A stretch of 64,000 bases of DNA from Candidatus Omnitrophota bacterium (GCA_030681595.1 JAUXSB010000055.1:64364-128363); one strand, 5' to 3'; shown: positions 235 to 45,004, counted from the first letter of the stretch. Notes: a model not told the origin generated them from the letters alone. Translations and numbers: made by a program.

Positions 235-534
235 ATGTTCGCGCATTTGGTGTTATTTGAAATTGAGCCGAAACAAGTCCGGGCCTACCGTAAGGATTGT
301 AAAATGTGGGCAAGCTATGCCCGAAAGCATAAAGGTTTTTTGGAGTATTCTACAGTAAGGCGCCTAGAATATAAAAATCAGTTCGCTTCCGTATATGCAT
401 GGAAGTCCAAAAAAAATCATGATGCTTTTATGAACAAGCTTCATGATTGGCTGGTAAGTAAATCTAAAGCTAAAGTTAAAGTACTGGCTTATTATAATTT
501 TAATGCTATCGATAAAATATCGGCGGCTAAATAA
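235..534 (+). CDS. Small hypothetical protein, possibly an ABM/ferredoxin-like fold
   Basis: 99 aa ORF 1 nt after the cyclophilin stop. No diagnostic motif was recognised. Confidence 0.35.
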   Translation: MFAHLVLFEIEPKQVRAYRKDCKMWASYARKHKGFLEYSTVRRLEYKNQFASVYAWKSKKNHDAFMNKLHDWLVSKSKAKVKVLAYYNFNAIDKISAAK

Positions 535-662
535 GCAGTATCTTTTAGCCGTTATCGCGAAATAACTTGTTGTACCTGCGGTAGTTATATAAGCACGCCA
601 AATCGGTTAGGTATATCAGGCCGATTATCTATAAAAAAACCATAAAAGTTTAAAACGAGAAA

Positions 663-2489
663 ATGGAAAAATTTTCTTATACAGGGCTTTTTTTGTTTGA
701 TGGGCTTTCTTGTTTTTTCTTAGTAGTTATCGCGCTTGTTTCTATCCCTTCAGCGATATTCTCAATAGGATACCTGTCTCCTTGCGTCTCAAAAATAAAG
801 TTTTCGTTAGCGAACATCCTTCTGGTTTTCTTTGTTTTCTCTATGTCAATGGTAGTTACCTCGGGAAACCTTTTTTCTTTTCTTGTATTCTGGGAGTTAA
901 TGTCGCTTTCTTCATATTTTTTGGTAGTTTTTGAGCATACCCACCAAAGGTGTGTGCGCGCCGGGACAATTTATCTGGTAATGACGCATATGGGTACCGC
1001 GTTTCTTATCGCGGCATTTGCTATTCTTTATGTCCATGCTGGGTCATTTGATTTTGGCGCGGTGAAATTGGCGGTACTTAGCATGCCGCAGGATATGCGT
1101 AATATTGTATTTTTATTACTCTTTATTGGTTTTGGGACAAAGGCCGGAGTAGTTCCTTTGCACATCTGGCTTCCTTACGCGCATCCTGCAGCACCGGCTC
1201 ATGTTTCAAGTCTTATGTCCGGCGTTATGATAAAGATAGCTATTTATGGGATGATCCGTTTTTTTATTATGCTTTTAGGAGTGGGGCCGCCTTGGTGGGG
1301 AATCGTTATTTTAGTCTTTGGGGCTGCCTCTTGCCTTATCGGTGTTATCTATGCTCTAATGGATCACGATTTAAAAAAACTGCTTGCTTATCATAGCGTA
1401 GAGAATATCGGAATTATTCTTTTGGGTTTAGGCATAGCCATGGTTTTTAAAGGTTATCCAGTTACAACTATCGTATTGTTAGGTATGTCTGGCGCGCTTT
1501 ACCATTTAGTTAATCACGGGTTGTTTAAGGGGTTATTATTCCTTTGTTCCGGAAGCGTGGCCAAGGCATGTGGAACCCTTGACATAGAAAAAATGGGCGG
1601 CTTGATAAAATCAATGCCGGTAACCGCCGTATGTTTTCTTGTTGGGGCAATGGGTATTTCAGCGCTTCCACCTTTAAACGGATTTGTCAGCGAATGGCTC
1701 ACTTTTCAGGCATTTTTTGGCGCCTTACTTAGTTCGCAGGGAGGATTAAAGATTTTTATGCTTATCTGTGTCGCTGTCCTTGCTTTAACTAGCGGACTTG
1801 CCGCGGCTTGTTTTGTTAAGGCATTTGGCATAACATTTTTAGCCCTGCCGCGCAGCCGAGCCGCCCAAGAGGCAAAAGAATCATCGCTTTCGATGAAGGT
1901 GGGAATGGGAATCTTAGCGGTTTTGGTAGTTTTATTTGGTATAGGATGCGGTTTAATTATGCCCTATATTTGTCAAGTGGCGCAAGAAGTCTTAGGTATA
2001 GAGAACACACTGTTTTCTTTTAATTGGTTTTCGCTTTCTTTAGCCCCGATTTCACCTATATCTATTTCGCCCATTATTTTTGTGTTTATTTTAGCAGCGG
2101 TATCCTTAGTGTTATTGGCATGGTTTGTTTTATCACCCAGAAAAGCCGTGCCTTGTAATACTTGGGATTGCGGTTATTATGTATTGGGTGCGCGTAACGA
2201 ATATACGGCAACAGCATATTCAAAGCCTTTTCGGATTGCCTTTAGCTTTTTTTTATTGCCGTATCGCAAGGTTGAAAAGATCCGTGATTCGTTTTATCAT
2301 GTGCGTTCTTTTACTTACCAGACGCATACGACTAAAATATTTAAGCAGTACTTTTATGATCCGCTGGTCGGTTTTACTTACAATGTCGCGCATAAATTGC
2401 GGTGGTTGCAGCCGGGAAGCATAAATCTTTATATTTCATATATATTTATCGCACTTACAATATTAATTTTAGCATTAGTTATTTTATGA
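663..2489 (+). CDS. Group-4 hydrogenase / complex-I-like antiporter subunit (NuoL/MrpA/HyfB-like), 608 aa polytopic membrane protein
   Basis: Very hydrophobic. Carries NuoL/MrpA-family motifs (WLPYAHPAAPAHVSSLMSG, KLLAYHSVENIG). First gene of a tightly packed six-gene operon. Confidence 0.8.
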   Translation: MEKFSYTGLFLFDGLSCFFLVVIALVSIPSAIFSIGYLSPCVSKIKFSLANILLVFFVFSMSMVVTSGNLFSFLVFWELMSLSSYFLVVFEHTHQRCVRAGTIYLVMTHMGTAFLIAAFAILYVHAGSFDFGAVKLAVLSMPQDMRNIVFLLLFIGFGTKAGVVPLHIWLPYAHPAAPAHVSSLMSGVMIKIAIYGMIRFFIMLLGVGPPWWGIVILVFGAASCLIGVIYALMDHDLKKLLAYHSVENIGIILLGLGIAMVFKGYPVTTIVLLGMSGALYHLVNHGLFKGLLFLCSGSVAKACGTLDIEKMGGLIKSMPVTAVCFLVGAMGISALPPLNGFVSEWLTFQAFFGALLSSQGGLKIFMLICVAVLALTSGLAAACFVKAFGITFLALPRSRAAQEAKESSLSMKVGMGILAVLVVLFGIGCGLIMPYICQVAQEVLGIENTLFSFNWFSLSLAPISPISISPIIFVFILAAVSLVLLAWFVLSPRKAVPCNTWDCGYYVLGARNEYTATAYSKPFRIAFSFFLLPYRKVEKIRDSFYHVRSFTYQTHTTKIFKQYFYDPLVGFTYNVAHKLRWLQPGSINLYISYIFIALTILILALVIL

Positions 2490-3391
2490 TCGAAAAAACT
2501 TTTTTAATTATTATTCAGGCAGTTTTCTTGGTAATACTCGCTCCTTTGATAAGCGGTATAATCCACAAGCTAAAGAATAATCTACGCATGCGCAAGGGGG
2601 CAAGCGTGTTTCAGCCGTATTATAATTTTGTTAAGCTTATTGCTAAAGATGAGGTTATCTCGCGCAATACCTCTTGGATTTTTAGAGCTACTCCGGTAAT
2701 TGTCTTGGGCAGTGTCTTTTGTGTTTGTTTTTTACTGCCGGTTCTGCATAAAAGCTTTTTTTTAGGCCCGCTTGGAGATATGTTGGCAGTTATTTTTGTT
2801 TTTTCTTTGGGCCGTTTTTTTCTTGCGCTAGCTGCTCTTGATGCTGCAGGTTCGTTTGGCGGGATGGGCTCATCTCGTGAGGTATTTATTGCTAGTTTTG
2901 CTGAGCCGGCAACACTGGTTTCGATATTTGTTTTAGGCCTAAATTGCGGCTCGCTTTCGCCGTCTGCTGTCGCGTCATTAGAAGGGTGGCGTTTCTCTAG
3001 CTTGCTTTGCGGCTCAGCCCTTGGGATGGTAGCACTTGCCGAGACAGCGCGTATTCCGGTAGATAACCAGGAAACACACCTGGAATTAACCATGGTGCAT
3101 GAGGCAATGGTTTTAGAGTATTCAGGAAGATCTCTTGCGCTTCTGGAATTGGCAGCGCACATAAAACAGATTATTTTTTTTACGATTCTTTCCTGGGTTT
3201 TTTTCCCATGTCCGGTTAACGCCGTGTGGGGGTGGGCTTGGTTTATAATAAAACTTTGTATTATCAGCGTTTTTGTCGCGGTTACGGAAATTTCGCTGGC
3301 CAAGATGCGTTTATTCCGCGTATTGGATTATTTAGGGTTTGCTTTTTTGATTGCTATTCTTTCGGCAGTTTTCGCATTAATAGGAATGTAG
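2486..3391 (+). CDS. NuoH/HycD/HyfC-like membrane subunit
   Basis: ATG at 2486 overlaps the upstream stop (ATGA). About 300 aa polytopic protein of the complex-I H-subunit type. The track ORF 2402..3391 begins at an upstream alternative start. Confidence 0.75.
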   Translation: MIEKTFLIIIQAVFLVILAPLISGIIHKLKNNLRMRKGASVFQPYYNFVKLIAKDEVISRNTSWIFRATPVIVLGSVFCVCFLLPVLHKSFFLGPLGDMLAVIFVFSLGRFFLALAALDAAGSFGGMGSSREVFIASFAEPATLVSIFVLGLNCGSLSPSAVASLEGWRFSSLLCGSALGMVALAETARIPVDNQETHLELTMVHEAMVLEYSGRSLALLELAAHIKQIIFFTILSWVFFPCPVNAVWGWAWFIIKLCIISVFVAVTEISLAKMRLFRVLDYLGFAFLIAILSAVFALIGM

Positions 3392-3392
3392 T

Positions 3393-4037
3393 ATGCTAAC
3401 AATCATTTTTTTATCCGGTTTTTTACTTAGTTTATTTCTTATGGTGGTTGCCAAGCGGATTACCGCGCTGGTAAAGACGTTTGCCCTGCAGTCTTTATTT
3501 TTATCTTTGTATGCTTTATATGTCGCGGTTTTACAAAGGCATGCCGAGTTATTAATAATCTCTGGTTTAATCTTTATTTTAAAGGTAATAATTATACCGC
3601 GGGTAATATTAAGGATTAAGCGCAGAATTAATGTTGAAGAAGACCTAGGCCTTACGCTTAATACGCAGGTTTCATTGATTGTAGCACTTTTTTTAATGTA
3701 TTTTTCTTATTTGTTTATTAGCCGCATTATTTCTTTTAGTTCTGGTGAGGCCATGCAGGCGGTTGCGTTTACGGTTTCGTTTACCGCGGTTTTTATCGGG
3801 CTTTTTTTGATGATTTTTAGGCAAAAGGCCTTAAGCCAGGTAGTAGGGCTTTTAGTGATGGAGAACGGCACTTTTCTTGCCGCTCTGGCGATTACAGGCG
3901 GGATGCCGTTTCTTGTGGAGATCGCGATTTTCTTTGATGTTTTTATTTTTGTTTTGATTATTGAAATTTTGGTCTATAGGATTAACCGGCTTTTTACGCA
4001 TATTGATACTACGAAATTAACTACGCTTAAAGGATAA
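3393..4037 (+). CDS. HyfE-like (doubled NuoK-like) small membrane subunit
   Basis: 214 aa, entirely hydrophobic. Its size and operon position fit the hydrogenase-4 E component. Confidence 0.55.
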   Translation: MLTIIFLSGFLLSLFLMVVAKRITALVKTFALQSLFLSLYALYVAVLQRHAELLIISGLIFILKVIIIPRVILRIKRRINVEEDLGLTLNTQVSLIVALFLMYFSYLFISRIISFSSGEAMQAVAFTVSFTAVFIGLFLMIFRQKALSQVVGLLVMENGTFLAALAITGGMPFLVEIAIFFDVFIFVLIIEILVYRINRLFTHIDTTKLTTLKG

Positions 4038-4040
4038 ATT

Positions 4041-5582
4041 ATGTTTATTTTGGTAATACTTTTTATCCCGTTTGCCTTAAGTATTATTTCTTTATTCACC
4101 CCGTTAGAGAAAGTTGCTGACGGTGGTTTAAAGCTTTTATTGAGGCAATCCGTTAAGGATGGGGGTTCTCTAACGGGGTTCATAAAAAAAGAACGCCTGT
4201 TTGGTATTATAAATGCTTTTGGGTACGCGATAGTTTTGGGAATATCTCTATTGCTTACCGCGCGTATTCTTACGCCGCCTTATGTTATCAGGCAATTCGG
4301 GATATTTTATATTGATGCCTTAAGCGCCTTTTTTATGCTTATCACCGCGATAATTGCATTTAGCGCGAGTATTTATTCTATCGGGTATATTTCAAACGAA
4401 ATAGAAGAGGCTAAGATTAGTTTTCATAACACCAAGGTTTATTATTGCCTATTCAATCTTTTTTGTTTTTCGATGTTATTAGCGCCCATGCTTAATAATT
4501 TGGCTTTGGTTTGGATTGTTATTGAAATGACGACACTTATTTCAGCTTTCCTTGTTGGTTTTCATAATGTTAAGGAATCTATTGAGGCGGCTTGGAAATA
4601 TGTTATTATCTGTTCCGTGGGGATTACTTTTGCTCTTTTAGGGATTATCTTTTTTTATTATACCGCTTCAAAAGACGCGCATGTTACGAGTTTACACTGG
4701 TTGAAAATGTATGAAGCCGCGCGGTTTTTTAATCCGCATACGGTTAAAATCGCGCTTATTTTTATTTTTGTCGGTTATGGCACAAAGGCAGGTTTGGCGC
4801 CTATGCATAGCTGGCTTCCGGACGCGCATAGCCAAGCGCTTTCTCCGGTGAGCGGGCTTTTATCAGGGGTATTACTCAAGATATCATTATACGCTATCTT
4901 GCGTTTTGTGATTTTAGCGATTCCTTCTTTGGGTTACGCGTTTAGCGCGCAATTGTTTATTTTATTTGGGCTATGTTCTCTTTTTGTCTCCGCGGGATTT
5001 ATCCTGGTACAGAAGGACCTAAAGCGTTTACTTGCTTACAGCAGTATTGAGCATATAGGCCTCGTGAGTATTGCTTTTGGTTTAGGGCCTGTTGCGGGAA
5101 TTTATGCCGGATTATTACATATTTTTAACCACGCTGTAACCAAGGCGTTTATGTTTTTCTGCGCCGGAGATACAGTTAAGGCGTATCGTACGAATAATAT
5201 GAATTTAATGCAAGGTATGTTTAAGATAGCGCCCTTTACCGCGGGCGCTTTACTTCTGGGGGTCTTTGCTTTAACCGGCTCACCGCCATTTTCTATATTT
5301 ATTAGTAAAATTTTAATTATTTTGGCCGCTTTCGGGGGCAAGAGGTATGCTATTGCCGCGGTTATGCTTTTATTGTTGGCGGTAGTTTTCGCCGGGTTAT
5401 TACAGCACATAACGAAGATTGTCTTTGGTAATAAACCGCAAAATATGATTAAAATAAAAGAGCCGTTAAGCACAAAGGCTGCCGTTTTGTTTTTAGCAAT
5501 TTTTATCGTGTGGTTTGGCATGAAAGTGCCGGTTTGGTTTAGCGGCCTTTTGTCGGCCTGCGGAAAAATTATTTCTGGTTAA
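4041..5582 (+). CDS. NuoN/NuoM/HyfF-like antiporter subunit
   Basis: 513 aa with motifs WLPDAHSQALSPVSGLLSG and KRLLAYSSIEHIG typical of the complex-I antiporter-like family. Confidence 0.8.
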   Translation: MFILVILFIPFALSIISLFTPLEKVADGGLKLLLRQSVKDGGSLTGFIKKERLFGIINAFGYAIVLGISLLLTARILTPPYVIRQFGIFYIDALSAFFMLITAIIAFSASIYSIGYISNEIEEAKISFHNTKVYYCLFNLFCFSMLLAPMLNNLALVWIVIEMTTLISAFLVGFHNVKESIEAAWKYVIICSVGITFALLGIIFFYYTASKDAHVTSLHWLKMYEAARFFNPHTVKIALIFIFVGYGTKAGLAPMHSWLPDAHSQALSPVSGLLSGVLLKISLYAILRFVILAIPSLGYAFSAQLFILFGLCSLFVSAGFILVQKDLKRLLAYSSIEHIGLVSIAFGLGPVAGIYAGLLHIFNHAVTKAFMFFCAGDTVKAYRTNNMNLMQGMFKIAPFTAGALLLGVFALTGSPPFSIFISKILIILAAFGGKRYAIAAVMLLLLAVVFAGLLQHITKIVFGNKPQNMIKIKEPLSTKAAVLFLAIFIVWFGMKVPVWFSGLLSACGKIISG

Positions 5583-5595
5583 GAATAGGATAATT

Positions 5596-7191
5596 ATGCT
5601 GCGTATAGAAGAAGAACTTAAAAGCCAAAAAATAGAAATTATTGAAAGTGAGCGTATCCATTCGGATGAGCTTTATCTTACGGTAAATAAAGAAGATTTT
5701 AAAACGGCTTGCCTTAGCCTGCATAAGTTGCTTAAGTCTGCGGTCATAATGTTTTTTGCCGAGGATATGCGCGCGCAATCAAAGGTTTTTAGGATTTATT
5801 GTGTTTTTTTGGATACGCAAAATCATTCTTGGGTGGTAGTACGGACAGATTTAAGTGAAGATGCGCTGTTATTTAGTTCTCTGGCAAAAGATATCTATTC
5901 TGCCAGTATTTTTGAGCGCGAGATAAAAGAGATGTTTGGAATTATGCCGCAAGGCTGCCCTGATTTAAGGCGCTTGCGCCTGCATGACGAAGTTTGGCCG
6001 GAGGGTTTTTATCCTTTGCGTAAAGATAGTGTTTTGCCGAAGATATGCGCGTTTCTCGGCTCTTATCAATTTAGGCGCGTAGAGGGTAACGGGGTGTTTG
6101 AGGTTGGCGTGGGGCCGGTGCATGCCGGAATTATTGGCCCGGGGCATTTTCGTTTTAGCGTGGTAGGAGAGCCGATTATCAATCTTGAGCTGCGTTTGGG
6201 CTGGACACATCGCGGGATAGAAAAATTATTGGAAGGAAAAGATATTTTTGCGGGAGTTAAAATTTTTGAATGTATAAGCGGCGATACGGCTTTTGGATAT
6301 TCTAGTGCTTATTGTCAGGCAATAGAAAAAATATTAAAAGTAAATATTCCTTTGCGCGCGCAATACCTACGGGTGATATTCTTGGAGTTTGAACGGATAT
6401 ATAACCATATTAATAGCCTCGGAGGGATTGCCCTTGATGTAGGTTTTAGTTTTCCGGCGCAATTTGCCAGCCTTATAAAAGAACGCCTTTTACAATTGCA
6501 TGAGCGGATTAGCGGCTCTCGTTATTTAAAAGGGATTAATACTGTGGGTGGTGTTCAAGTTGATATTGAAGATAATAAAGCGGAAATTATACGTAAATCC
6601 ATTTTTGGTATCCAAAAAGATATTTTAGAGCTTGAAAAAATGCTTTATTCCAGCACTTCTTTTATGGATCGCGTGGATTCTACGGGAATTTTACGTAAAA
6701 AAACAGCGCAGGACTTAGGCGTTACGGGCCTTGCCGCCCGCTCAAGCGGGATAGCGTTGGATATGCGTAAGGTTTTTGGAGGTATTTATGAAAAATTCAC
6801 GTTTAATATTATTGCAGAGCAAGCCGGCGATGTCTGTTCTCGCATGAAGGTGCGTTTTTGGGAAATAAAAGAATCATTGGGCCTGATTAATCAGGGCCTT
6901 GAAAAACTTAAAAGTGTAGTGGGCACCTCTGGAGTGGCCGGAGGTCTCCCCGGAGGTGGCGAAGCACGGTCGCTTGATGGTGTTGGTATTGGCTGCGTTG
7001 AGGCATGGCGGGGAATGTTGCGCGTATGGTGCCGGATAGATAAAGAAGGCAGGATTATCCGTTGTAAGATAGTTGACCCTTCGTTCCATAATTGGGAAGG
7101 GCTTAGTTTCGCGGCATTGGGCAATATCATCCCGGATTTTCCTTTATGTAATAAAAGTTTTGACCTTTCGTATGCAGGTAATGACCTATGA
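5596..7191 (+). CDS. Fused NuoC-NuoD / HycE-like 'large subunit' lacking the Ni-Fe cysteine ligands (Ehr-like)
   Basis: N-terminal NuoC-like domain. GPVHAGIIGPGHFRF and HRGIEKL motifs of NuoD/HycE are present. C-terminus reads DPSFHNW where NiFe large subunits have DPCxxCxxH. There is no CxxC after the HRGxEK motif. Confidence 0.8.
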   Translation: MLRIEEELKSQKIEIIESERIHSDELYLTVNKEDFKTACLSLHKLLKSAVIMFFAEDMRAQSKVFRIYCVFLDTQNHSWVVVRTDLSEDALLFSSLAKDIYSASIFEREIKEMFGIMPQGCPDLRRLRLHDEVWPEGFYPLRKDSVLPKICAFLGSYQFRRVEGNGVFEVGVGPVHAGIIGPGHFRFSVVGEPIINLELRLGWTHRGIEKLLEGKDIFAGVKIFECISGDTAFGYSSAYCQAIEKILKVNIPLRAQYLRVIFLEFERIYNHINSLGGIALDVGFSFPAQFASLIKERLLQLHERISGSRYLKGINTVGGVQVDIEDNKAEIIRKSIFGIQKDILELEKMLYSSTSFMDRVDSTGILRKKTAQDLGVTGLAARSSGIALDMRKVFGGIYEKFTFNIIAEQAGDVCSRMKVRFWEIKESLGLINQGLEKLKSVVGTSGVAGGLPGGGEARSLDGVGIGCVEAWRGMLRVWCRIDKEGRIIRCKIVDPSFHNWEGLSFAALGNIIPDFPLCNKSFDLSYAGNDL

Positions 7192-7712
7192 GCTTAAATA
7201 TTTTTAAAAATAGCCTAAGAAAAGGGAGAGTTACTGTTTCTCTTGATAAGGCTGCTTTTATCAGGCCAGCGGAAATTAACGAAATTGGCGAAGAGTTAAA
7301 GCGCTTGATCCATAAAAAATTCGCCCGCTCGTTTCATATCCGCGAAGTTGATACTGCCTCTTGTGGCGCTTGTGAATCGGAAATAATCGCCTGCTCTAAT
7401 CCTTTTTATGATATTCAGCGTTTTGGGATTGATTTTGTCGCTTCTCCCCGTCATGCCGATGCCTTGCTTGTAACTGGCCCGGTTTCAAAGAATATGGAGC
7501 TTGCGCTTAAGAAAACCTATGAGGCAGTGCCGGAGCCGAAATTTGTTATTGCCATGGGTGATTGCGCCAAAGGAGGCGCTCAATTCAGCGATTCGTATTA
7601 TACCTGCGGAGGGGTAGAAAATATCCTGCCTGTGTCTTTACATATTCCGGGATGTCCGCCTAATCCAACACAAATTATTTTTTGCTTGTTAGATTTTCTG
7701 GATAAAATTTAA
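7188..7712 (+). CDS. NuoB/HycG-like small subunit ([4Fe-4S] N2-type)
   Basis: Cys motifs CGAC, GDCAKGG and PGCPP match the NuoB/hydrogenase small-subunit signature. ATG overlaps the upstream stop. Confidence 0.85.
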   Translation: MSLNIFKNSLRKGRVTVSLDKAAFIRPAEINEIGEELKRLIHKKFARSFHIREVDTASCGACESEIIACSNPFYDIQRFGIDFVASPRHADALLVTGPVSKNMELALKKTYEAVPEPKFVIAMGDCAKGGAQFSDSYYTCGGVENILPVSLHIPGCPPNPTQIIFCLLDFLDKI

Positions 7713-7738
7713 TAAAAAAATAAAATAAAATTTATAGT

Positions 7739-7775
7739 CTTGACAAAAGAAATGCTTGTTGTATAATATATTTCG
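7739..7775 (+). promoter_or_regulatory. Near-consensus sigma70 promoter (TTGACA, 17 bp spacer, TATAAT) upstream of the ArsR-family gene
   Basis: cTTGACAaaagaaatgcttgttgTATAATat lies about 35 bp upstream of the ATG at 7809. Confidence 0.55.
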
Positions 7776-7808
7776 TTATATCCGAATATTGAGGAATAAG
7801 GAAATAAT

Positions 7809-8138
7809 ATGGAAGAATTGGCCTATAAGATAAAAGCGGATTTTTTAAAGACATTAGCCCATCCGGTGCGGCTTCAGATTGTTGAATTTTTAAAGAATGG
7901 CGAGAAGAATGCAGGAGCTATAGTTAAAACTCTCGGCATACCTCAATCTAGTCTTTCCCGGCACCTGTTGGTTTTAAGAGAAGGCGGTATTTTAAAATCA
8001 AGGCAACAGGGCACAGCTATTTATTACAATATTGAAGACCACGATATCTTTCAGGTGTTGCGGCCGATAGCGGAAATGCTGCGTAAGAAGCTTAAAAGAA
8101 CAGAGGTAGTCTTAAGTAGTTTAGGCAAGGAAAAGTAG
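7809..8138 (+). CDS. ArsR/SmtB-family metalloregulator (winged HTH)
   Basis: LAHPVRLQIVEFL...SQSSLSRHLLVLREGGIL is the classic ArsR HTH signature. Confidence 0.8.
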   Translation: MEELAYKIKADFLKTLAHPVRLQIVEFLKNGEKNAGAIVKTLGIPQSSLSRHLLVLREGGILKSRQQGTAIYYNIEDHDIFQVLRPIAEMLRKKLKRTEVVLSSLGKEK

Positions 8139-8402
8139 GTTTTCAAAAAGAAGGAGAGGCAAAATAGAGAAAACAGCAGAAATGTCGGGTCTTGGTGTTT
8201 TTTGGAGGCAGTTTTGAATTCTCGATCGAAACAAGAGCTAACAATAGCTTTCATATAAATTTTAAAACTCTCTTTAATGGGCCTCATACTTTTAGTTATC
8301 ATTTATAGTATTTCCCGCCAAGACCTACCATAATCATTCATCTCAAAACTAAAGCTAAAGAATAGCCTTTATTGAAAGCCATATTAAGGAGCTAAGTTTT
8401 TT

Positions 8403-8669
8403 ATGGGGGCCAATAAATCTTTGTTTCTCGAAGAAAGAATAAAAATTATTATTGCTAGCGCGTTGTGTGTAGAAAAAGATAAGGTTAAAAATGACGCTCT
8501 ACTGGATAAAGATTTAGGGGTGGATTATTTAGATAAGGCGGTCATCAAAATGGATTTAGAGGATGCATTTAAAATTGCCATTTCGGATAAAGATATAGCC
8601 GATAAAAATAAGGTTTCAGAGATTATGGATTATATAAAGAAAAGGACAGATGCTTCAGTTTCAAGGTAG
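8403..8669 (+). CDS. Small acidic protein with an ACP-like helical signature but Tyr in place of the phosphopantetheine Ser
   Basis: DLGVDYLDKAVIKMDLEDAF resembles the ACP motif DLGADSLD..E.EF with Ser replaced by Tyr. Weak. Confidence 0.3.
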   Translation: MGANKSLFLEERIKIIIASALCVEKDKVKNDALLDKDLGVDYLDKAVIKMDLEDAFKIAISDKDIADKNKVSEIMDYIKKRTDASVSR

Positions 8670-9051
8670 GAATATAACCAGCGAATTTGATTTGTTGAAG
8701 GTAAAGGTTCAGGCAATCGATTTTATTAAACCCATCAAATTCGAGAAAGCAGACCTCGAGAAATTAGCAGATTTAGTGTTTGAATTAGCTAAAGAGTTAA
8801 TTTTCAATCAGGTTGATGCCTACATCTGCTTAAACTGCTATAAACTGGAGCGCAAAATTGGCTTAGAGGTGTATGTGTATAACAAAAATATGTCTCTAGA
8901 AAAAGCGCAAGAAGCTTTAAATAATAACTATAATTTAAGCAAAAAGGGTATCTTCTTAAACAAAAATTCAGGATTTTTAGATAAATTTGAGTTAAAGAAA
9001 GAAGCAAAATCAGGCATTGAAATCAATATTCTTAAATGGTCAAAATTATAG
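8650..9051 (+). CDS. Hypothetical protein
   Basis: 133 aa ORF in the AT-rich islet. No motif recognised. Start uncertain. Confidence 0.3.
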   Translation: MLQFQGRNITSEFDLLKVKVQAIDFIKPIKFEKADLEKLADLVFELAKELIFNQVDAYICLNCYKLERKIGLEVYVYNKNMSLEKAQEALNNNYNLSKKGIFLNKNSGFLDKFELKKEAKSGIEINILKWSKL

Positions 9052-9111
9052 AAGAACCTAGAAGCCACAAGAAAAAATCAGGACAGGTAACTTTTGAAGG
9101 CGATAATAAAA

Positions 9112-9612
9112 ATGTTTAAAGTAGGCGATAAAATAATCCATAATTTTTACGGCCTTTGTGAGATTGCCGCAATCGAAATGCAAGATACCTATTACGGCAA
9201 GCAGGAATGTTACATTATCTATATGGATAAAACTAAAATAATGATCCCTGTTTCTCATTCTGAGATGTTGCGGTACCCAATAGGAAAGGAAGAAATCCCC
9301 GGAGTACTTGATAGGCTCAGCAATACTAATAATTTGCCAGAAGAACTACCTTCTGAAGAGCGCATCAGACTCTTTTTAGAGAAATTCAAGACCAATGATA
9401 TCGTAAAAATCTCCGAGATACTTAGAGATATTGTATTTTTAGGCGAAACGGATAAGTTAAAAACGCAGGAGAAGAATTTGCGTGAGCGAATTAATAAACT
9501 ATTATCGGATGAATTATCTTTTGTTCAAAACATTACCAAGGCGGAGGTTTTAAAAACTATTGATAATTGTCTGAGGAAGGTGAAGGAGAGCGCGAAATGC
9601 CGCAGAAAATAA
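9112..9612 (+). CDS. CarD/CdnL-family RNA-polymerase-binding transcription factor
   Basis: N-terminus MFKVGDKIIHNFYGLCEI matches the CarD_CdnL_TRCF RNAP-interacting domain (MFKVGDxVVYPxHG). The track ORF begins at an upstream TTG. Confidence 0.6.
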   Translation: MFKVGDKIIHNFYGLCEIAAIEMQDTYYGKQECYIIYMDKTKIMIPVSHSEMLRYPIGKEEIPGVLDRLSNTNNLPEELPSEERIRLFLEKFKTNDIVKISEILRDIVFLGETDKLKTQEKNLRERINKLLSDELSFVQNITKAEVLKTIDNCLRKVKESAKCRRK

Positions 9613-9827
9613 AATTAAGAGTAGGGGATACCATAGATTACGGTAATGGCAGAAAAGGTCAGATTGGAAAAATTAGAATAATTTCCAGCGGTAAGTTTGT
9701 CGAAGAATACGAATACGACGGTGACGGCCACGATTTAGTATTAACCGTGTGTGGTGATAGGAGCGTGACTAACCTTTGGGTTAAAGATACGCGCATCCAT
9801 ATAGTGCCGGCAGAAAAAAAGAGGTAA
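9597..9827 (+). CDS. Small hypothetical protein
   Basis: ORF with an internal ATG start MPQKIKLRVGD. No motif recognised. Confidence 0.3.
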   Translation: MPQKIKLRVGDTIDYGNGRKGQIGKIRIISSGKFVEEYEYDGDGHDLVLTVCGDRSVTNLWVKDTRIHIVPAEKKR

Positions 9828-9830
9828 GGC

Positions 9831-10094
9831 ATGTCTGCTTTTATACGGACTATTCAGGGAAAAATTTTTGGTATAGACCATAATAAGAAACTTTTTTCTT
9901 TGGCTATAGAAGAGATTTTGAGTGGAATAGCCCAGAAGAAGATAGATTTCTTGCTGGATCCCAACGTCAGGATTACAGATGTGGCTAATCAGCAAATGAA
10001 ACTCGTGGCTTTGAACGCGGACGATAAAGTAGAAGTCGGCTATATAAGGGATAAATCCCAAAGAACCGCCTTATTTATTAAGGTTATAGGTTAA
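9831..10094 (+). CDS. Small hypothetical protein
   Basis: 87 aa ORF tightly packed between its neighbours. Confidence 0.3.
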   Translation: MSAFIRTIQGKIFGIDHNKKLFSLAIEEILSGIAQKKIDFLLDPNVRITDVANQQMKLVALNADDKVEVGYIRDKSQRTALFIKVIG

Positions 10095-10099
10095 TATTT

Positions 10100-11011
10100 A
10101 TGGAAACCTTTGATTTGGGAATTGCCTGGGATAATGAATCAGATAATGAGTTTGTTAACGACCTCAATGCTTACGTTCTCAAAAAAGGGATAAAGCCGTA
10201 TCTGATCCATGTCTATAATTTCCTTTCTTCCTTAAAAGATATTACTGATAGCCAGCTAACTTTTCATTGTTTTTTTGACCGTTCTTCGGATGACAGTTAT
10301 ACTTTCGGTGGACTGGCAGATTTTCTTAAGAAAAAAGGCATCAATTTTATTAATCATCTCGATAATGTAAAAAATTCTATAGATAAATTTAAAATACATT
10401 CTATGTTTATAAGCCATGGTTTGTCTGTTCCTAAAACGGTTTTTTTAAAACCTCAAGAGGAAAAACAAATCATAGAGGCAAAGATTCAGCATGTTTCTGT
10501 CCCGTATATGCTTAAGCCGGCATTTGGTTCTTATGGTGATGGCACAGTTTTGAGTATTAATTCTTTAAATGACGCTTTGAGGTTAGTGGGGGACGCAAAA
10601 GATAAGTCTTATTTTGCACAAGAAGAAGTTATAGCCATAAATCTGGAGAATAAACCCGCATGGTTTAAGGTTTTATATTGTTTTGGGGAGATAATTCTTT
10701 TACGATGGCATCCGGTGATTCGAGAGTACGAGATGCTTTCCTTAAGGCAAATATATCGTTTAGGATTACATGAAATTTGGCCGATAACGAAGAAAATCAA
10801 GCAGGCATGCAAATTGGATTTTTTCTCCACAGATATAGCTATGAAAGAAAAGGGGAAATTTCTGGTCGTTGACTACGTAAATGATAGGCCGGATATGCGT
10901 AAAAAGTCAAAATTCAAAGATGTTTTACCTGATGAAATAGTTGATAAGATCATTAATAGCATTGTGTCTTTTATAAAAACTAATAAAAAAAGATGGTTCG
11001 CAGAGCGTTAG
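10100..11011 (+). CDS. Hypothetical protein, possibly ATP-grasp fold
   Basis: MLKPAFGSYGDGTVL resembles the ATP-grasp Gly-rich loop. Otherwise unassigned. Confidence 0.35.
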   Translation: METFDLGIAWDNESDNEFVNDLNAYVLKKGIKPYLIHVYNFLSSLKDITDSQLTFHCFFDRSSDDSYTFGGLADFLKKKGINFINHLDNVKNSIDKFKIHSMFISHGLSVPKTVFLKPQEEKQIIEAKIQHVSVPYMLKPAFGSYGDGTVLSINSLNDALRLVGDAKDKSYFAQEEVIAINLENKPAWFKVLYCFGEIILLRWHPVIREYEMLSLRQIYRLGLHEIWPITKKIKQACKLDFFSTDIAMKEKGKFLVVDYVNDRPDMRKKSKFKDVLPDEIVDKIINSIVSFIKTNKKRWFAER

Positions 11012-11219
11012 AGGCAAAAGTAGCAAAGGAGTTACTCTTTTAAGCTAAATCTCGAATCACCAACGCTCGCATTGAAGATACAAGCGTTAAGGCGCTTGGG
11101 TTTTCTAATATTAAGCCATGTAATAGAGCGGCCATAGATTACGTAAAAGAAAGTAGTGGCAAGTTAATTGCCTCTGATATTATTGTAATATCTAAATCAC
11201 AGAGAGGAGGTGAGAGGGG

Positions 11220-11591
11220 ATGGTTAAAATAATAAAGCTCGCGCTAGTGTGTTTAGCAGTGGTCGGGTTGGTAGGAGTGGCTGTGCCGGTCTATGCTCAA
11301 GGAGCGGCAGGACAGGAGGCTATCTTGGTTTCAGGCGAAGTGGTTTCAGTGGGTTTGGTGAAATCTGAAGTTGTGATTAAACAGCTTAAAGATGCAGTTA
11401 CCAGCACTTACGAAAATATTACTTTTGTGACAGCGCCTGAAACGAAAATTATCAAAGGCGATGCTGCCTTGAAGCTTTCTGATTTGAAGGCGGGGGATAA
11501 AGTTAGCGTTAAATATATCTCTGATGAATCAGGGAAACAAAAGGTAGGGAGTATCTCGTTAGAAGTTGAAGAAACAGCACTAGCTAAATAA
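11220..11591 (+). CDS. Small secreted protein (signal peptide)
   Basis: N-terminal MVKIIKLALVCLAVVGLVGVAVPVYAQG is a signal peptide. Good RBS gagaggagg. Followed by a 15 bp perfect-stem hairpin at 11601..11639. Confidence 0.45.
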   Translation: MVKIIKLALVCLAVVGLVGVAVPVYAQGAAGQEAILVSGEVVSVGLVKSEVVIKQLKDAVTSTYENITFVTAPETKIIKGDAALKLSDLKAGDKVSVKYISDESGKQKVGSISLEVEETALAK

Positions 11592-11915
11592 GCAATCAAA
11601 ATAGCGGCGGTTAATTATCGCTATATTAACCGCCGCTATTACAAAAAAGTAAGTTAAATTACGAGTGAAAGAAGGTGATTGAAATGGTAAGAAAGAAGAA
11701 AGTTCCGATTACGCCAGTGGCACCACAGAAGACCGAAAACCAACCCACACAGACCCCTCAAGCTCCATCTGGAGGTCAGTCTTCTATTCCTCAGGCACCA
11801 TCCACTCCCCAGAAAGCTTAAATGATGGGGTATTCTAAGTATGGGATGGCTAAAGTTAGAGACTTGTGCTGTCCTATGATTTATTTTTTATTTTAGAGAA
11901 AGGATAAAGTTAAGT

Positions 11916-12407
11916 ATGACAAAGGGGATCAAACACAGTGATATAAAACTGCCAGATTTACTCAAGGAAAAATACATTGAACTGGATTTGAAGGAAAAAG
12001 AAAAAACTAAGTTAATTGCTGAATTAGTAGATATAGTTGTTAAGCCTAGCCGAATAAAGGACGGGAAAGTTCTGTCTAAAGCTATTTTAGAACGAGAGAA
12101 ATTAGGCTCTACTGCTATCGGAAATGGCATAGCCATACCCCATGTTAAAATTAGAGGGATTAAGAAACCGTTGCTTATTTTAGGTAAGTCAGCTGAAGGT
12201 GTAGATTTTGATTCTTTGGACGGAGAGAAGACTTACCTATTTTTTATGCTTATTTCACCACAAAAAGAAATTGGCCTGCATCTTAAAATCTTAGCTAAGA
12301 TTTCGCATTTAGTAAAAGATAAATTTGTAGTAGAGCGCTTAAAAAAGATAAAGGAGAAACACGAAATTTTTGAGATAATTTCTGGTTTTGAGCGATTTTT
12401 TAAATAA
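11916..12407 (+). CDS. ptsN: PTS EIIA(Ntr)/fructose-type regulatory protein (PtsN-like)
   Basis: GNGIAIPHVKI with the active-site His and a LILGKS..GVDF region typical of PTS_EIIA_2. Confidence 0.7.
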   Translation: MTKGIKHSDIKLPDLLKEKYIELDLKEKEKTKLIAELVDIVVKPSRIKDGKVLSKAILEREKLGSTAIGNGIAIPHVKIRGIKKPLLILGKSAEGVDFDSLDGEKTYLFFMLISPQKEIGLHLKILAKISHLVKDKFVVERLKKIKEKHEIFEIISGFERFFK

Positions 12408-12428
12408 AAAATGTGGGAGGTGGTAAAT

Positions 12429-12878
12429 ATGAAAGTAGGTATAAGTTTAGAGAATGAGAATGGATTATATAGTAATGTTTGCAAGCATTTTCAAGAGAGC
12501 AGCCATTTTTTTATTTTAGATATTGATAAAAATAAAATTGTCAGTAGTAGGGTTGTTCCGAATCATGTTCGGCATAATGGCAAAGAATATATAGTGGCCG
12601 ATGAGGTATTAAAATATAGAATTACCCATCTGATCGCAGATAATGTGGGGGTGGCTGCGCAGAAAAGATTCGTACAAACCAATGTTCAGGTATTTAAATA
12701 TTCAGGCAACGTAAAAGATGCCATTGATAATTTTTTTAAAAAAAATATGGGGCTTGCGCTTAAGAAAACCTATGAGGCAATGCCGGAGCCGAAATTCGTT
12801 ATTGCCACGGGCGATTGCGCCAAAGGGGGCGCTCAGGCGGACAATTTAGCGATTCGTATTATACCTGCGGAGGGGTAG
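12429..12878 (+). CDS. NifX/NifB-type dinitrogenase FeMo-cofactor-binding domain protein whose 3' end is fused in frame to a decayed copy of the hydrogenase small-subunit C-terminus
   Basis: MKVGISLENENGLYSNVCKHFQESSHFFILDID matches the NifX-like domain. From about 12744 the sequence is a near-copy of 7491..7712. Confidence 0.5.
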   Translation: MKVGISLENENGLYSNVCKHFQESSHFFILDIDKNKIVSSRVVPNHVRHNGKEYIVADEVLKYRITHLIADNVGVAAQKRFVQTNVQVFKYSGNVKDAIDNFFKKNMGLALKKTYEAMPEPKFVIATGDCAKGGAQADNLAIRIIPAEG

Positions 12879-12973
12879 AAAATATCCTGCCTGTGTCTTT
12901 ACATATTTCGGGATGTCCGCCTAATCCAACACAAATTATTTTTTGCTTGTTAGATTTTCTGCATAAAGCATAG
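12744..12973 (+). pseudogene. Degenerate duplicate of the 3' end of the NuoB/HycG-like gene; direct repeat of 7491..7712 with an 8 nt insertion that shifts the frame
   Basis: About 90% nucleotide identity to 7491..7712 by eye across ~225 bp. After the frameshift the other frame reads YYTCGGVENILPVSLHISGCPPNPTQIIFCLLDFL. Confidence 0.75.
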
Positions 12974-13089
12974 TCTCTAAGTAGAAAAAAGTCAATAAAA
13001 AGAGGAATTAGGCTATTTACATCTGGTTTGGATTGCGATAGTATTATTTCGCTTGAAGCAATAGGGAATTATGTCAGATTTTTCGGCTG

Positions 13090-13345
13090 TTGGCTTCAAG
13101 ATCAAGTAAAATTGCGCTTCGCTTTGCAATTTTACTTGCGTCGCGCAAGCCAGCCCGACAAGCGTTCTGGCGGGTATGCGCGACATCGCGCCCGCCTGAC
13201 TTCATTCGGGCAGGCAAAATCTAATCGCCAGAGGCGGATCCGCCTGCGGCGGAAATCGCCAGCCACCGCCGAATGGCGGGGTGCCGCCAACGGCGGCATT
13301 GGCAGATTTTGCTTGACAAAGTTAACAGAGTGTGGCATACTATTT
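13090..13345. other. GC-rich (roughly 60% against a ~40% background) structured intergenic element with several stem-loops; possible ncRNA or REP-like element
   Basis: Inverted repeats caagtaaaattgc/gcaattttacttg, gtcgcgca/tgcgcgac, ggcggatccgcc, ccgccgaatggcgg and ccgccaacggcgg are visible. The ORF 13028..13381 over it is Arg-rich junk. Confidence 0.4.
13313..13341 (+). promoter_or_regulatory. Putative sigma70 promoter (TTGACA, 17 bp spacer, CATACT) for the XRE-CBM48 gene
   Basis: cTTGACAaagttaacagagtgtggCATACT about 130 bp upstream of 13473. Confidence 0.4.
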
Positions 13346-13472
13346 TTTCGCAGAACAAGTCATAGCTGGTTTGATGTATAATAAATAGGGCGAGGAAGGT
13401 AGTGGTAGGCACGAATTTTTGATGTACGTACTTATAATTTAACTATAATATTTACAACGAGTTAGGAATAAT

Positions 13473-13982
13473 ATGTTTGGGGAAAGTATAAAAAGATTAA
13501 GAGAGCGAAAAAAATTTACTCAGGATGACTTGGCGGGAAGGTTGGGTGTCTCAAGGCAGGCAATCTGTATGTGGGAGTTAGATAAGCGGGGGCTTACAGC
13601 CAAGATGTTAACCAAGATTGCTAATGTCTTTGAAGTGTCAGTGGATGAGGTGGTCAAGTTACAGCATTTTACTGTAACAGGAAAGGGGGAGGGTATGATT
13701 ACTGCTACAAAAAGGGTCAGAGAAAAGGATGTGGAGTTTCAGCTTAACGCTCCGCAGGCAAAGAGTGTTGTTTTAACCGGTAGTTTTAACTCTTGGTTAC
13801 AGAATGGAATAAAGATGCTAAAAGGCAAGAACGGCGCATGGAAAGCAAATGTTAACCTTAAGCCCGGCAGGTATGAATATAAATTTATTGTAGATGGGCA
13901 GTGGTGGACGGATCCGTCAAATAAAAATACTACTTCGAATTCATACGGAAGCCATAATTCATTAAAGGAAATTTCTGCTTAA
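13473..13982 (+). CDS. XRE-family HTH regulator fused to a CBM48 / AMPK-beta-type glycogen-binding domain
   Basis: N-terminus LTQDDLAGRLGVSRQAICMWE is an XRE HTH. The C-terminal block LTGSFNSW...GRYEYKFIVDGQWWTDP is the glycogen-binding-domain signature. Confidence 0.6.
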   Translation: MFGESIKRLRERKKFTQDDLAGRLGVSRQAICMWELDKRGLTAKMLTKIANVFEVSVDEVVKLQHFTVTGKGEGMITATKRVREKDVEFQLNAPQAKSVVLTGSFNSWLQNGIKMLKGKNGAWKANVNLKPGRYEYKFIVDGQWWTDPSNKNTTSNSYGSHNSLKEISA

Positions 13983-15142
13983 TGCGCATCGCGATTTTTT
14001 CCTGGGAGTCGGTGTATTCTATCTATGTGGGCGGCGTAGCGGCGCATGTCACAGAGCTTGCCTGCGCGTTAGAACGTAAGGGGCATGAAGTGCATGTTTT
14101 TACAAGACTAGCGCGCCATGATCAGCCGTGGTATGAGCGTATACATGGCGTACACTATCATCGTTGCCCTTTCAATACCAATCCTGATTTCGTGGAAGAA
14201 ATAAAAAATATGTGCCGTGCTTTTGTGGATGCGTTTTACCAGACTGAAAATTACGCGGGGTACTTTGATATTATCCATGCTCACGATTGGCTTACCGCGT
14301 ACGCGCTTATTTGGATTAAAGAAGGCCGCCCTAGAAAAGCGATTTTTACAATGCACTCGACCGAATACGGCAGGTGCGGTAATAATTTCTTCGGCGGAAA
14401 CTCCGAGAGGATCCGTCATATAGAATGGCTCGGCGCCTATTGCGCGGATAAGGTGGTCGCGGTCTCCAAATCGCTTAAAAATGAATTAATGTGGATATAT
14501 AGCTTACCCGACAATAAGGTTAGTGTAGCTTATAACGGCATAAATTATCATAATTACGATGGCTGGGTAGAGCCTGCGGCGGTAAGGCGGATGTATGATA
14601 TCGGAGCGATGGACCCGATGGTGCTTTTTGCCGGCAGGATGGTTTATCAAAAAGGGCCGGATATCCTTGTTGACGCGATTCCGCATATCTTAAAGTTCTA
14701 CGGTAACGCCAAGTTTGTTTTTGTCGGCGACGGAGAGATGCGTTGGAGCGCAGAAGACAGGGCGAAGCATCTAGGTGTTTCGCATGCTACCAGATTTCTC
14801 GGATATCACAATGGCTGGCGCTTAACCGACCTTTATAAGGCAAGTGATTGTGTATGCGTCCCCAGCCGTAATGAGCCGTTTGGGATAGTTATTTTGGAAG
14901 CATGGAGCGCGGGAAAGCCGGTAGTCGCCACTTCCAACGGCGGGCCTTCGGAGATAGTCTGGCATGACGTAAACGGCCTTAAAGTTTATCCAACTGCCGA
15001 TTCAGTGGCTTGGGGCATCGGCACGCTTTTTAGCGATTTTGAGCACGCGCGCTGGATGGGGAATAACGGCCGCATAGCGGTTGAGACGGTGTTTTCCTGG
15101 GATACGATTACAGACGAGGTATTAAGTATTTACAGTAATTAA
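13982..15142 (+). CDS. GT4-family (GT-B) glycosyltransferase, glycogen/alpha-glucan synthase-like
   Basis: MRIAIFSWESVYSIYVGGVAAHV start plus a C-terminal EPFGIVILEAWSAGKPVVAT motif (EX7E region) typical of GT4/glycogen synthases. Confidence 0.75.
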   Translation: MRIAIFSWESVYSIYVGGVAAHVTELACALERKGHEVHVFTRLARHDQPWYERIHGVHYHRCPFNTNPDFVEEIKNMCRAFVDAFYQTENYAGYFDIIHAHDWLTAYALIWIKEGRPRKAIFTMHSTEYGRCGNNFFGGNSERIRHIEWLGAYCADKVVAVSKSLKNELMWIYSLPDNKVSVAYNGINYHNYDGWVEPAAVRRMYDIGAMDPMVLFAGRMVYQKGPDILVDAIPHILKFYGNAKFVFVGDGEMRWSAEDRAKHLGVSHATRFLGYHNGWRLTDLYKASDCVCVPSRNEPFGIVILEAWSAGKPVVATSNGGPSEIVWHDVNGLKVYPTADSVAWGIGTLFSDFEHARWMGNNGRIAVETVFSWDTITDEVLSIYSN

Positions 15143-28183: not shown

Positions 28184-28343
28184 ATCTTAAATTGCGTGGC
28201 TTTGGCTATATTGAAAGCCAAACCATTGCCCTCTGGCTTGGATAAGGCTTGGAATTTATTGGGATAGTATTATAATATATAAAGATAGCGAAATAGTTAA
28301 GCAGTTCTGATACGAATTTTCGAGTGTGAGGGAGAAATGACAA

Positions 28344-28778: not shown

Positions 28779-28833
28779 CCAGAATTTATTTATAGCTGAA
28801 ATATTACCAAATAGTTAAGCAGTTCTGATACGA
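28779..28833. repeat. Family-1 intergenic repeat (full copy): cagaa..agaatttatttatagc...aaatagttaagcagttctgatac
   Basis: Near-identical to 43935..43992. Half-copies at 28291..28315, 29574..29605 and 36414..36430. Confidence 0.75.
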
Positions 28834-43934: not shown

Positions 43935-43992
43935 AGAACTAAGAATTTATTTATAACCTTAATATTACTAAATAGTTAAGCAGTTTTGACAC
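43935..43992. repeat. Family-1 intergenic repeat (full copy)
   Basis: cagaactaagaatttatttataaccttaatattactaaatagttaagcagttttgacac, aligned by eye to 28779..28833. Confidence 0.75.
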
Positions 43993-44069: not shown

Positions 44070-44588
44070 ATGAGCGAACAGTTTAAACATAATGATTCTT
44101 TACCTCATGTCTCAGCTGAGCAGGATGTGATGGCTTTGGTTAAAAAGATGCAACAGCAGTTGATCTCTTTAGAGAAGAAGATAGACATCTTGATCAACCA
44201 GTCTCAAGATAGGCCTTTTAGACAGAAGCCTTTTTCAAAACCTTTTCGGTCTTTCGGCCATCATCGTCGTCCCGAAAGAGAGCATGGTGATGCCTCCGAA
44301 GGAAAAAGCTTTGACCGCGCTCGCCATTTTGAGAAACGTCCTTACGGAGAAAAGAGAGGGTTTGGCTACAAGAAAGAGTCTTACGGTAATTATCGGGAAA
44401 GTAATTTTACCCCAGAGCGTCCTTTTAAGAAACGTTACGACCCAGAAAAGAGAGGGTTTGGCCGCAAGAGAGAGTCTTACGGTAATCCTCAGGAAAGTAC
44501 TTTTACCAAAGAGCATCATTTTGAGAAACGTTCCGGCCCAGAAAAGAGAGGGTTTGATCAAAAAAAGAAGCCGTTCCATCATAAGTAA
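44070..44588 (+). CDS. Basic, Cys-free repeat protein with E(K/R)RGFG repeats
   Basis: Four or more repeats of ...EKRGFGxKKESYGN.... pI very high. Possibly nucleic-acid binding. Confidence 0.4.
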   Translation: MSEQFKHNDSLPHVSAEQDVMALVKKMQQQLISLEKKIDILINQSQDRPFRQKPFSKPFRSFGHHRRPEREHGDASEGKSFDRARHFEKRPYGEKRGFGYKKESYGNYRESNFTPERPFKKRYDPEKRGFGRKRESYGNPQESTFTKEHHFEKRSGPEKRGFDQKKKPFHHK

Positions 44589-44832: not shown

Positions 44833-45004
44833 AAGAGGCGCCGACTGGCGCAAAATCTCCTGTTTTTAAGGCTAGGGGGAAGAGGTTGCTAAAAGATAGC
44901 AATGCGTTTTTATTGCCAACGTATTTGGTGTCAGGACTCGTTATAAACAAGACGCTTTATATAACTATCTGTAAATCAAAGGATCATGAAATAAATATTT
45001 CTGC

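Follow-up and report, generated by a model that had tools for sequence, protein, structure and literature searches.

The NuoB/HycG-like small-subunit gene (called hycG below) in a 64,000-nt stretch of DNA from Candidatus Omnitrophota bacterium (GCA_030681595.1, JAUXSB010000055.1:64364–128363) has received, at its 3′ end, an insertion of ~5.04 kb. The complete 64-kb stretch is referred to as the window. All coordinates are positions within it, the genes and features of the insert and its borders lie on the plus strand, and L-numbers (L081 etc.) denote fetched comparison loci. The inserted DNA (7701–12740) is a copy of a gene cluster found widely in Omnitrophota chromosomes, running from the promoter of an ArsR-family gene to the 3′ end of a NifX-like gene, and it is bracketed by two copies of the hycG 3′ segment. 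The structure is probably the scar of one illegitimate, recombinase-independent insertion guided by microhomology, with duplication of 213 bp of the target.

The duplicated 3′ end of hycG and the empty site

The intact hycG gene (7188–7712; 174 aa, PF01058, E = 1.2e-27) is the last gene in an operon for a group-4 hydrogenase-like membrane complex. Its 3′ segment is present twice in direct orientation. Copy A (7488–7700) is the duplicated target segment located inside the working gene, and copy B (12741–12961) is a displaced and decaying native hycG 3′ segment. The copies are identical at 204 of 213 positions (95.8%), with nine substitutions. The same pair is recovered by blastn between the left and right flanks (7491–7706 with 12744–12967; 224 columns, 92.4% identity, E = 4.6e-89), and on self-comparison of 6000–14500 it appears as two adjoining direct-repeat blocks that are offset from one another by 8 nt (7487–7582 with 12740–12835, 93%; 7574–7736 with 12835–12997, 88%), in agreement with pairwise alignment. 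It is the sole long direct repeat within the window. An earlier note on this DNA, made from the sequence alone, had described such a repeat with an 8-nt insertion and scattered substitutions in its second copy; its position is nearly as given there, and both kinds of change are present.

The 8-nt insertion in copy B (12836–12843) shifts the reading frame. With these nucleotides removed, copy B aligns codon for codon with 7488–7712 with 14 differences, nine of which are scattered across 7488–7700 and five crowded into the final 12 nt (7701–7712 versus 12962–12973). This terminal section is better read as non-homologous, except for a short ATAAA. The inserted sequence (GGCGGACA) resembles an imperfect tandem duplication of the preceding GGCGCTCA, which points to a slippage event in a decaying fragment. 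At residues that are otherwise invariant, copy B has also undergone changes (M to T in AMGDCA, and P to S in PGCPP), and its stop is altered; taken with the frameshift, this is how a displaced fragment would be expected to decay. It is not part of a full-length paralogue of hycG.

Since the window derives from a contig of a metagenome-assembled genome (MAG), the duplication might be ascribed to an artefact of assembly or amplification. This is extremely improbable. An artificial duplication would be identical, whereas these copies differ by their nine substitutions and the 8-nt indel, and nowhere match perfectly for more than 60 nt (another perfect run is of 52 nt). Moreover, an assembler could not have bridged the junctions, which share at most seven perfect bases.

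The polarity of the event follows from comparison with related genomes. An NCBI protein from a Candidatus Omnitrophota MAG is identical (100%) to the HycG protein, whose next relatives are 87% and 84% identical at the amino acid level; exact-sequence look-ups with the HycG and the NifX fusion of the window matched no contig. The 87% relative is represented by two contigs, L081 (132 kb, from ENA) and L082 (from Logan). These carry the same operon, with hycG followed directly by HTH-CBM48, glycosyltransferase, DUF4912 and GH57 genes, the counterparts of which begin at 13473 in the window. On blastn comparison L081 and the window share three collinear blocks: 250–7699 (80%), 12756–13022 (79.5%, aligning to L081 10316–10575) and 13313–18042 (86%). 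There is no match in L081 for 7700–12755. L081/L082 is the sole relative that shares the hycG-to-glycogen-gene neighbourhood, and it is without the 5-kb block between the two.

Homology to the hycG flank of L081 is found just 3′ of copy B, in sequence that takes in the native stop region, but not 3′ of copy A. The gene's original 3′ end is therefore copy B with its flank, and 7701–12740 is inserted DNA. The native end of hycG (HKA-stop, with TAG at 12971–12973) and the native 3′ flank are found at 12962–13022, collinear with the L081 flank. The earlier note had extended the repeat into the 3′ flank. This does not hold, as the two flanks are unrelated: that of copy B is similar to the native flank of hycG in L081, and that of copy A to the upstream region of the inserted cluster. 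Its proposal of an insertion, 5 kb long and flanked on both sides by a duplicated 3′ end, is upheld by the flank homology and by the empty site, for which it had suggested a search; in L081 and L082 hycG directly adjoins the sequence that follows copy B.

The opposite polarity was also considered, in which the window retains the ancestral arrangement, the cluster disappeared from L081 when the repeats recombined, and gene conversion has kept copies A and B alike. Deletion between direct repeats would yield exactly the structure of L081, and in other Omnitrophota (e.g. L170) the cluster does adjoin the homologous operon. Against this, copies A and B are only ~4% apart, while divergence between the window and L081 reaches ~24% in this segment (with 76.0% and 76.4% identity to L081 for copies A and B, respectively, which are equidistant from all outgroups). 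A neutral fragment such as copy B that is 96% identical to copy A cannot predate the split of the window lineage from L081 unless gene conversion acted, and the even spread of the differences along the repeat, together with the indel, argues against recent conversion. An ancestral arrangement is thus decidedly unlikely, and it would alter only the date, the repeats still requiring the same kind of insertion. The divergence places the insertion after the split from L081. L081 is accordingly a true empty site, and the insertion comparatively recent.

Junctions of the insert

The right junction contains a short region of microhomology (12741–12757) that aligns to both the native NifX 3′ end and hycG. 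At its 3′ end the native NifX gene of L085 and L136 reads AAAGAATGTAGAACTTGC, and hycG reads AAAGAATATGGAGCTTGC; these are identical at 15 of 18 positions, including a perfect AAAGAAT. Blastn homology between the window and native NifX genes consequently does not stop at the edge of the repeat, extending to 12757, 17 nt into copy B. At the protein level the native NifX end reads ...FLKKNVELAKK... and HycG reads ...VSKNMELALKK.... A match of 14/18 is reached by ~1.3e-5 of ~4 million position pairs between the cluster of a relative and hycG, and this rarity indicates that the right junction was guided by chance short similarity.

The consequence for the NifX-like gene is the loss of ~8 codons, cut off by the junction. 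Native NifX-like proteins comprise 95–136 aa and end with ...DNFLKKNVELAKK plus a variable tail. The protein encoded in the window switches at ...DNFFKKNMGLALKKTYEAMPEP... into the HycG sequence ...VSKNMELALKKTYEAVPEP.... The resulting chimeric open reading frame (ORF; 12411–12878) is NifX-like as far as 12740, is there fused in frame to displaced hycG codons 101 onward, and ends after the frameshift. It matches PF02579 at residues 21–109 and then PF01058 at residues 105–142, as expected from the in-frame fusion that had been recognized earlier. The PF02579–PF01058 fusion is unique to the window among 261 hits (68 NifX-like homologues listed).

At the left junction the breakpoint is located somewhere in 7700–7714. 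Collinearity with L081 ends at 7699. Copies A and B agree to 7700, after which 5 of 12 positions differ, and homology to the cluster relatives becomes detectable by blastn from 7714–7718. The section 7701–7739 comprises the junction and cluster-derived upstream DNA, so that the last four codons of hycG (7701–7712, DKI-stop) derive from the inserted DNA. The C-terminus of HycG is variable among orthologues. Close to the junction, GGATAAAATTTAA resembles a GGA(A)TAATTTA motif that is found upstream of the cluster promoter in relatives. Seven relatives with the same promoter type (L096, L099, L102, L103, L109, L110 and L129) have the upstream sequence GGA(A)TAATTTA(A/G)AAAA...TTTATAGTCTTGACA, to which GGATAAAATTTAAT...AAAATTTATAGTCTTGACA in the window is similar. 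These relatives share a further ~100 nt of upstream sequence that is missing from the window, indicating that the insert was cut at an arbitrary point rather than at the end of an element. No tRNA, tmRNA or Rfam family was found at or near either junction.

Nature and mode of the insertion

Using homologues of the ATP-grasp, NifX-like and ArsR proteins, the cluster was found on >80 Omnitrophota contigs with its gene order kept. From the 5′ end this is ArsR, ACP-like, 133-aa protein, (Fer4), CarD-like, two small ORFs and ATP-grasp, continuing with DUF5666-like proteins, (peptidoglycan (PG)-binding, ArsB-like, OmpA/LysM), small ORF, PtsN-like and NifX-like. No description of this cluster was encountered, although no literature search was aimed at it. 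The insert aligns with the clusters of relatives with a mean nucleotide identity of ~77–86%, from 7714–7778 on the left to 12757 on the right, and has the same gene order, promoter and leader. The window copy is compact in comparison, lacking Fer4, two DUF5666-like paralogues and the PG-binding-to-LysM block, and its NifX-like gene has lost the native last ~8 codons. The cluster occurs in other chromosomal contexts in the relatives. Its conserved order across Omnitrophota contigs identifies the insert as an ordinary chromosomal cluster. It is a copy of ordinary DNA present elsewhere, and its end points are arbitrary, one inside the NifX-like gene and the other inside conserved upstream DNA. 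Every ORF of the cluster is as long as its orthologues. Copy B, with its 213 nt, already contains an indel by comparison, and it follows that purifying selection is acting on the cluster genes.

The earlier note had compared the repeats with the attL and attR sites of an integrative element, although it saw no integrase, and it named a recombination-mediated insertion as its other possibility. In the most explicit form of the first suggestion the 3′ end of hycG would be carried as attP, the element would have integrated by site-specific recombination, and the integrase would later have been lost. The likeness to integrase islands and prophages at gene 3′ ends is real, with flanking 3′-end repeats, a regenerated and intact target gene, an empty site in a relative, and an insert that is slightly richer in AT. 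However, direct repeats and an empty site are common to insertions that do not involve a recombinase, and so do not discriminate.

Other observations do. Scans of the island ORFs against Pfam, NCBIfam and PHROGs found no integrase, transposase or phage function, in line with the earlier note, and no recombinase is found in either flank, both of which are syntenic with L081. There is no room for a lost mobility gene, as the 5 kb is filled by conserved cluster genes. The insert has no match in plasmid and phage collections, and among IMG/VR viral contigs only a partial, 40% identical match of the ArsR family was found. None of the cluster relatives (>80 contigs) has a hycG fragment after NifX that could represent an element-borne att copy; among cluster-bearing loci hycG is found only in L151 and L157, where it is full-length, lies kilobases 3′ of ArsR, and is in a locus without a NifX match. 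Furthermore, the right boundary is at a chance similarity within the coding sequence of NifX, which it truncates, and the left boundary falls within upstream sequence that is conserved in relatives. The fossil-element reading is largely refuted, and very improbable as an account of the locus. The recombination-mediated insertion offered in its place was essentially right.

Nor is base composition informative in this respect. The G+C content (GC) of the island is 35.8%, compared with 40.7% and 44.8% for the upstream and downstream flanks. The island is thus more AT-rich, as had been noted, but the difference is modest, and low GC is shared by the cluster in every other genome examined (36.4–37.3%, with flanks of 38.7–45.2%). 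Composition was consequently rejected as a sign of foreign origin, the cluster having 36–37% GC in all genomes examined and a GC at third codon positions that overlaps that of the flanks. For programs that call islands and prophages the locus is a caution: repeats of a gene 3′ end, an empty site and lower GC together mimic an att-flanked integrative element.

Possible donor sites and mobile units were also sought among the relatives. The flanks of their clusters have no counterpart in the window except for the downstream flank of L121, which matches near 39.9–40.5 kb; this match is weak (27–37% translated identity) and does not represent a donor site. In L136 a 51-nt direct repeat (5291–5341 and 14645–14695, 96% identical) with a terminator-like hairpin flanks the whole cluster. 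It was discounted as a fresh target duplication in view of the terminator hairpin and because both neighbours are conserved in L118 and L143, and is probably a repeated terminator module. A 33-nt repeat in L089 is a multi-copy hairpin and was likewise set aside as a sign of a mobile unit. No repeats flank the cluster in L104 or L106, or in L084/L097 combined with L085.

The observed topology can be generated by a single event. The left end of the cluster would be joined after hycG ~7700 and its right end joined back to hycG at 7488, 213 bp upstream of the first junction. Because the joints are in reversed order, the 213 bp between them would be written twice. In a template-switch version, replication would leave hycG at ~7700 into the region upstream of the cluster, and return from the NifX 3′ end at the short similarity. 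The same product would be expected from double illegitimate recombination (DIR) of a DNA fragment that had entered the cell. It is the topology that suggests a replication-based origin; the template switch and DIR are both plausible enzymologies, and the source may have been the same genome or a related cell. Subsequently copy A would have been under selection as the working end of the gene, with three harmless replacement codons provided by the insert, while copy B has drifted, acquiring the frameshifting 8-nt insertion and the substitutions at conserved residues. The NifX-like gene now reads into copy B as a chimeric tail.

Some features fit a single illegitimate insertion less comfortably. 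Microhomology at the left junction is at most TG.ATAA(A), as judged from proxy donor sequences. The regenerated end of hycG (DKI-stop) has the same length as the native end (HKA-stop), a mild coincidence under a purely illegitimate join. An exact 13-mer from the end of hycG (TGTTAGATTTTCT, window 7687–7699) is present ~300 nt 5′ of ArsR in the close cluster relatives L084 (7376–7388) and L097 (9700–9712), with no wider homology around it. It fits into no consistent model; this is either a coincidence without explanation or the trace of a more complex history of the left junction. No second or ancestral copy of the cluster was located in this genome or that of L081: there is none within the 64-kb window, and a protein search found no second ATP-grasp attributable to the MAG. 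Both 'copy-paste' within the genome and 'uptake from another cell' are compatible with the data. Lastly, the junctions are known from the assembly of the MAG contig.

The equal length of the hycG termini would follow naturally if copy A came from the donor's own hycG. This is the basis of an alternative in which a donor strain already had the cluster 3′ of its hycG, and the import was a homology-facilitated illegitimate recombination with its homologous end in hycG and its illegitimate end at NifX. The 3′ part of copy A would then be donor DNA, and the divergence of copies A and B would partly be that between donor and recipient. Such an import would explain the native-length end of hycG, and also the derived states of copy A at 7527 and 7701 that are shared by no outgroup, and the right junction would be the same as in the single illegitimate insertion. 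However, adjacency of hycG and ArsR is found in none of ~170 fetched loci (83 with hycG homologues and >80 with the cluster), the left junction would still need an earlier illegitimate event in the donor and hence one more step, and copies A and B are equally far from the outgroups. Import from such a donor, with what it implies for copy A, therefore seems unlikely.

The single illegitimate insertion has parallels in known systems. Integration of ectopic DNA at microhomologies during replication has been documented in Acinetobacter, and DIR and short-patch DIR in Acinetobacter baylyi (bioRxiv 10.1101/2023.11.22.568220) similarly involve two microhomology joints with no long homology and no site-specific recombinase. 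The target between the joints can be either deleted or duplicated, and the source can be intra- or extragenomic. These are laboratory events, mostly short patches or selected markers, unlike the insertion in the window, which spans 5 kb, is natural and fixed, belongs to an uncultured phylum and has clear microhomology at one of its two junctions. De Vries, Huelter and Wackernagel reportedly published the original papers on DIR.

Fork stalling and template switching, and microhomology-mediated break-induced replication (said to have been proposed by Hastings et al. in 2009), resemble the proposed event in the templated insertion of a distant segment, the return upstream of the point of departure, the duplication of target at the insertion site, and the microhomology left at a joint. 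They differ in being known mostly from eukaryotes and from amplification systems in E. coli. Microhomology is enriched at natural breakpoints of horizontal gene transfer in gut bacteria, and the two processes are listed as a mechanism for such breakpoints (PMC11317153); how complex chromosomal insertions arise in humans is the subject of PMC5120786. In integrase islands and prophages, by comparison, an integrase and an att copy borne by the element are expected, while the insert in the window has no integrase, its relatives have no such att copy, its cargo is a conserved chromosomal cluster, and it is bounded within a gene on one side and within conserved upstream DNA on the other.

The locus provides a well-resolved natural case, from an uncultured phylum, of a change in bacterial gene order that involved no machinery of a mobile element. 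An entire cluster has moved together with its own promoter, guided by a chance similarity of ~18 nt, leaving a long target duplication and a chimeric NifX-HycG′ ORF. The process is a known one, of which the locus adds an instance: a rearrangement scar, clean but ordinary, that by itself opens no new biological question.

Cluster genes, the membrane-complex operon and neighbouring sequence

The cluster begins with a consensus sigma-70-type promoter (7740–7767; TTGACA, 16 nt, TATAAT) that matches at 12 of 12 consensus positions. The promoter and leader are conserved 5′ of the ArsR gene in dozens of relatives. The first gene encodes the ArsR-family regulator (7809–8138; PF01022, PF12840), for which most of the 80 metagenome loci returned have 94–98% amino acid identity. 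It is followed by an ACP-like protein (8403–8669) and a conserved 133-aa protein with a weak PqqD-like match (8650–9051), the order of both being conserved in relatives, and a CarD/CdnL-like protein (9094–9612; PF21095, PF02559). Two small conserved proteins (9567–9827 and 9831–10094) have no family match and no assigned function, with orthologues at the same position in relatives. The RimK-like ATP-grasp protein (10100–11011) scores above the cut-off for PF08443, just below it for PF14397, and far below the curated cut-off for TIGR00768; it has 71 homologues, of which the best other than itself is 84% identical. Then come a secreted DUF5666-like protein (11220–11591), a 48-aa ORF (11675–11821), and a PTS EIIA-2 (PtsN-like) protein (11916–12407; PF00359, E = 5.7e-36) that is above the cut-off for TIGR00848 and below that of the PtsN model TIGR01419. 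The chimeric NifX-like ORF completes the cluster. Both the promoter and the gene content reported in the earlier note are borne out by these ORF calls and family scans.

The ACP-like protein, the weak PqqD-like match, the two small ORFs and the RimK-like ATP-grasp protein occur together, and such a gene set would suggest a peptide-maturation system. The segment from CarD to the ATP-grasp exists as two divergent allelic types (ATP-grasp identity of ~80% versus ~54% at the amino acid level), and optional blocks come and go.

In the operon that ends with hycG, the large subunit (5596–7191; a fused 30-kDa/49-kDa type) is without all four of the cysteine ligands of the NiFe centre when aligned with E. 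coli HycE (7z0s_E). CGIC of HycE is replaced by SGDT, and DPCYSC by DLSYAG. The loss of the four cysteines indicates that the operon encodes a hydrogenase-like (Ehr-type) complex, and not a true [NiFe] hydrogenase.

Genes of the cluster are found close to this operon in other genomes. In L170 (208–12246) the cluster from ArsR to ATP-grasp, then a SulP transporter gene and an HTH_17-EIIA-2 gene, are located directly 5′ of the homologous membrane-complex operon. Homologues of ArsR are found upstream of the operon in L028, L029, L147, L151 and L157, and of the 36 loci with an EIIA-2 match, many have such a gene ahead of the operon. The linkage of cluster genes to the operon is therefore recurrent, and may be functional. 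A more far-reaching proposal is that the ArsR-to-NifX cluster is a recombinase-less module that relocates repeatedly, is tied functionally to the Ehr-type operon, and has repeats that permit its reversible excision by RecA. This we regard as improbable. If it were true, excision would restore an intact hycG, and the linkage of cluster and operon would be a switchable state and not a dead scar.

Beyond the native hycG flank there is a second difference from L081. The section 13023–13312 is a GC-rich insertion of ~290 nt, where L081 has 66 nt. Its 13100–13316 region is predicted to fold at −110 kcal/mol (z = −5.7), and the insertion extends precisely to the −35 TTGACA (13313) in the promoter that precedes the HTH-CBM48 gene. 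Neither the window nor the fetched loci contain a further copy, and it has no match in Rfam. Similar GC-rich hairpins adjoin the −35 box of ArsR in L131 and L132. It could be a terminator or insulator module, a MITE-like element (miniature inverted-repeat transposable element) or a small RNA.

Several shorter repeats occur further along the window. A 43-nt GC-rich intergenic unit (AAGCCAGAGGGCAGTGGTTTGGC...) is present once in inverted orientation at 28203–28245, and as three tandem copies at 44999–45128. There are three copies of a 51-nt intergenic motif ending in AAATAGTTAAGCAGTTCTGATAC, at 28263–28313, 28781–28831 and 43942–43992. Tandem repeats of 96 nt are located within an ORF, at 44322–44513.

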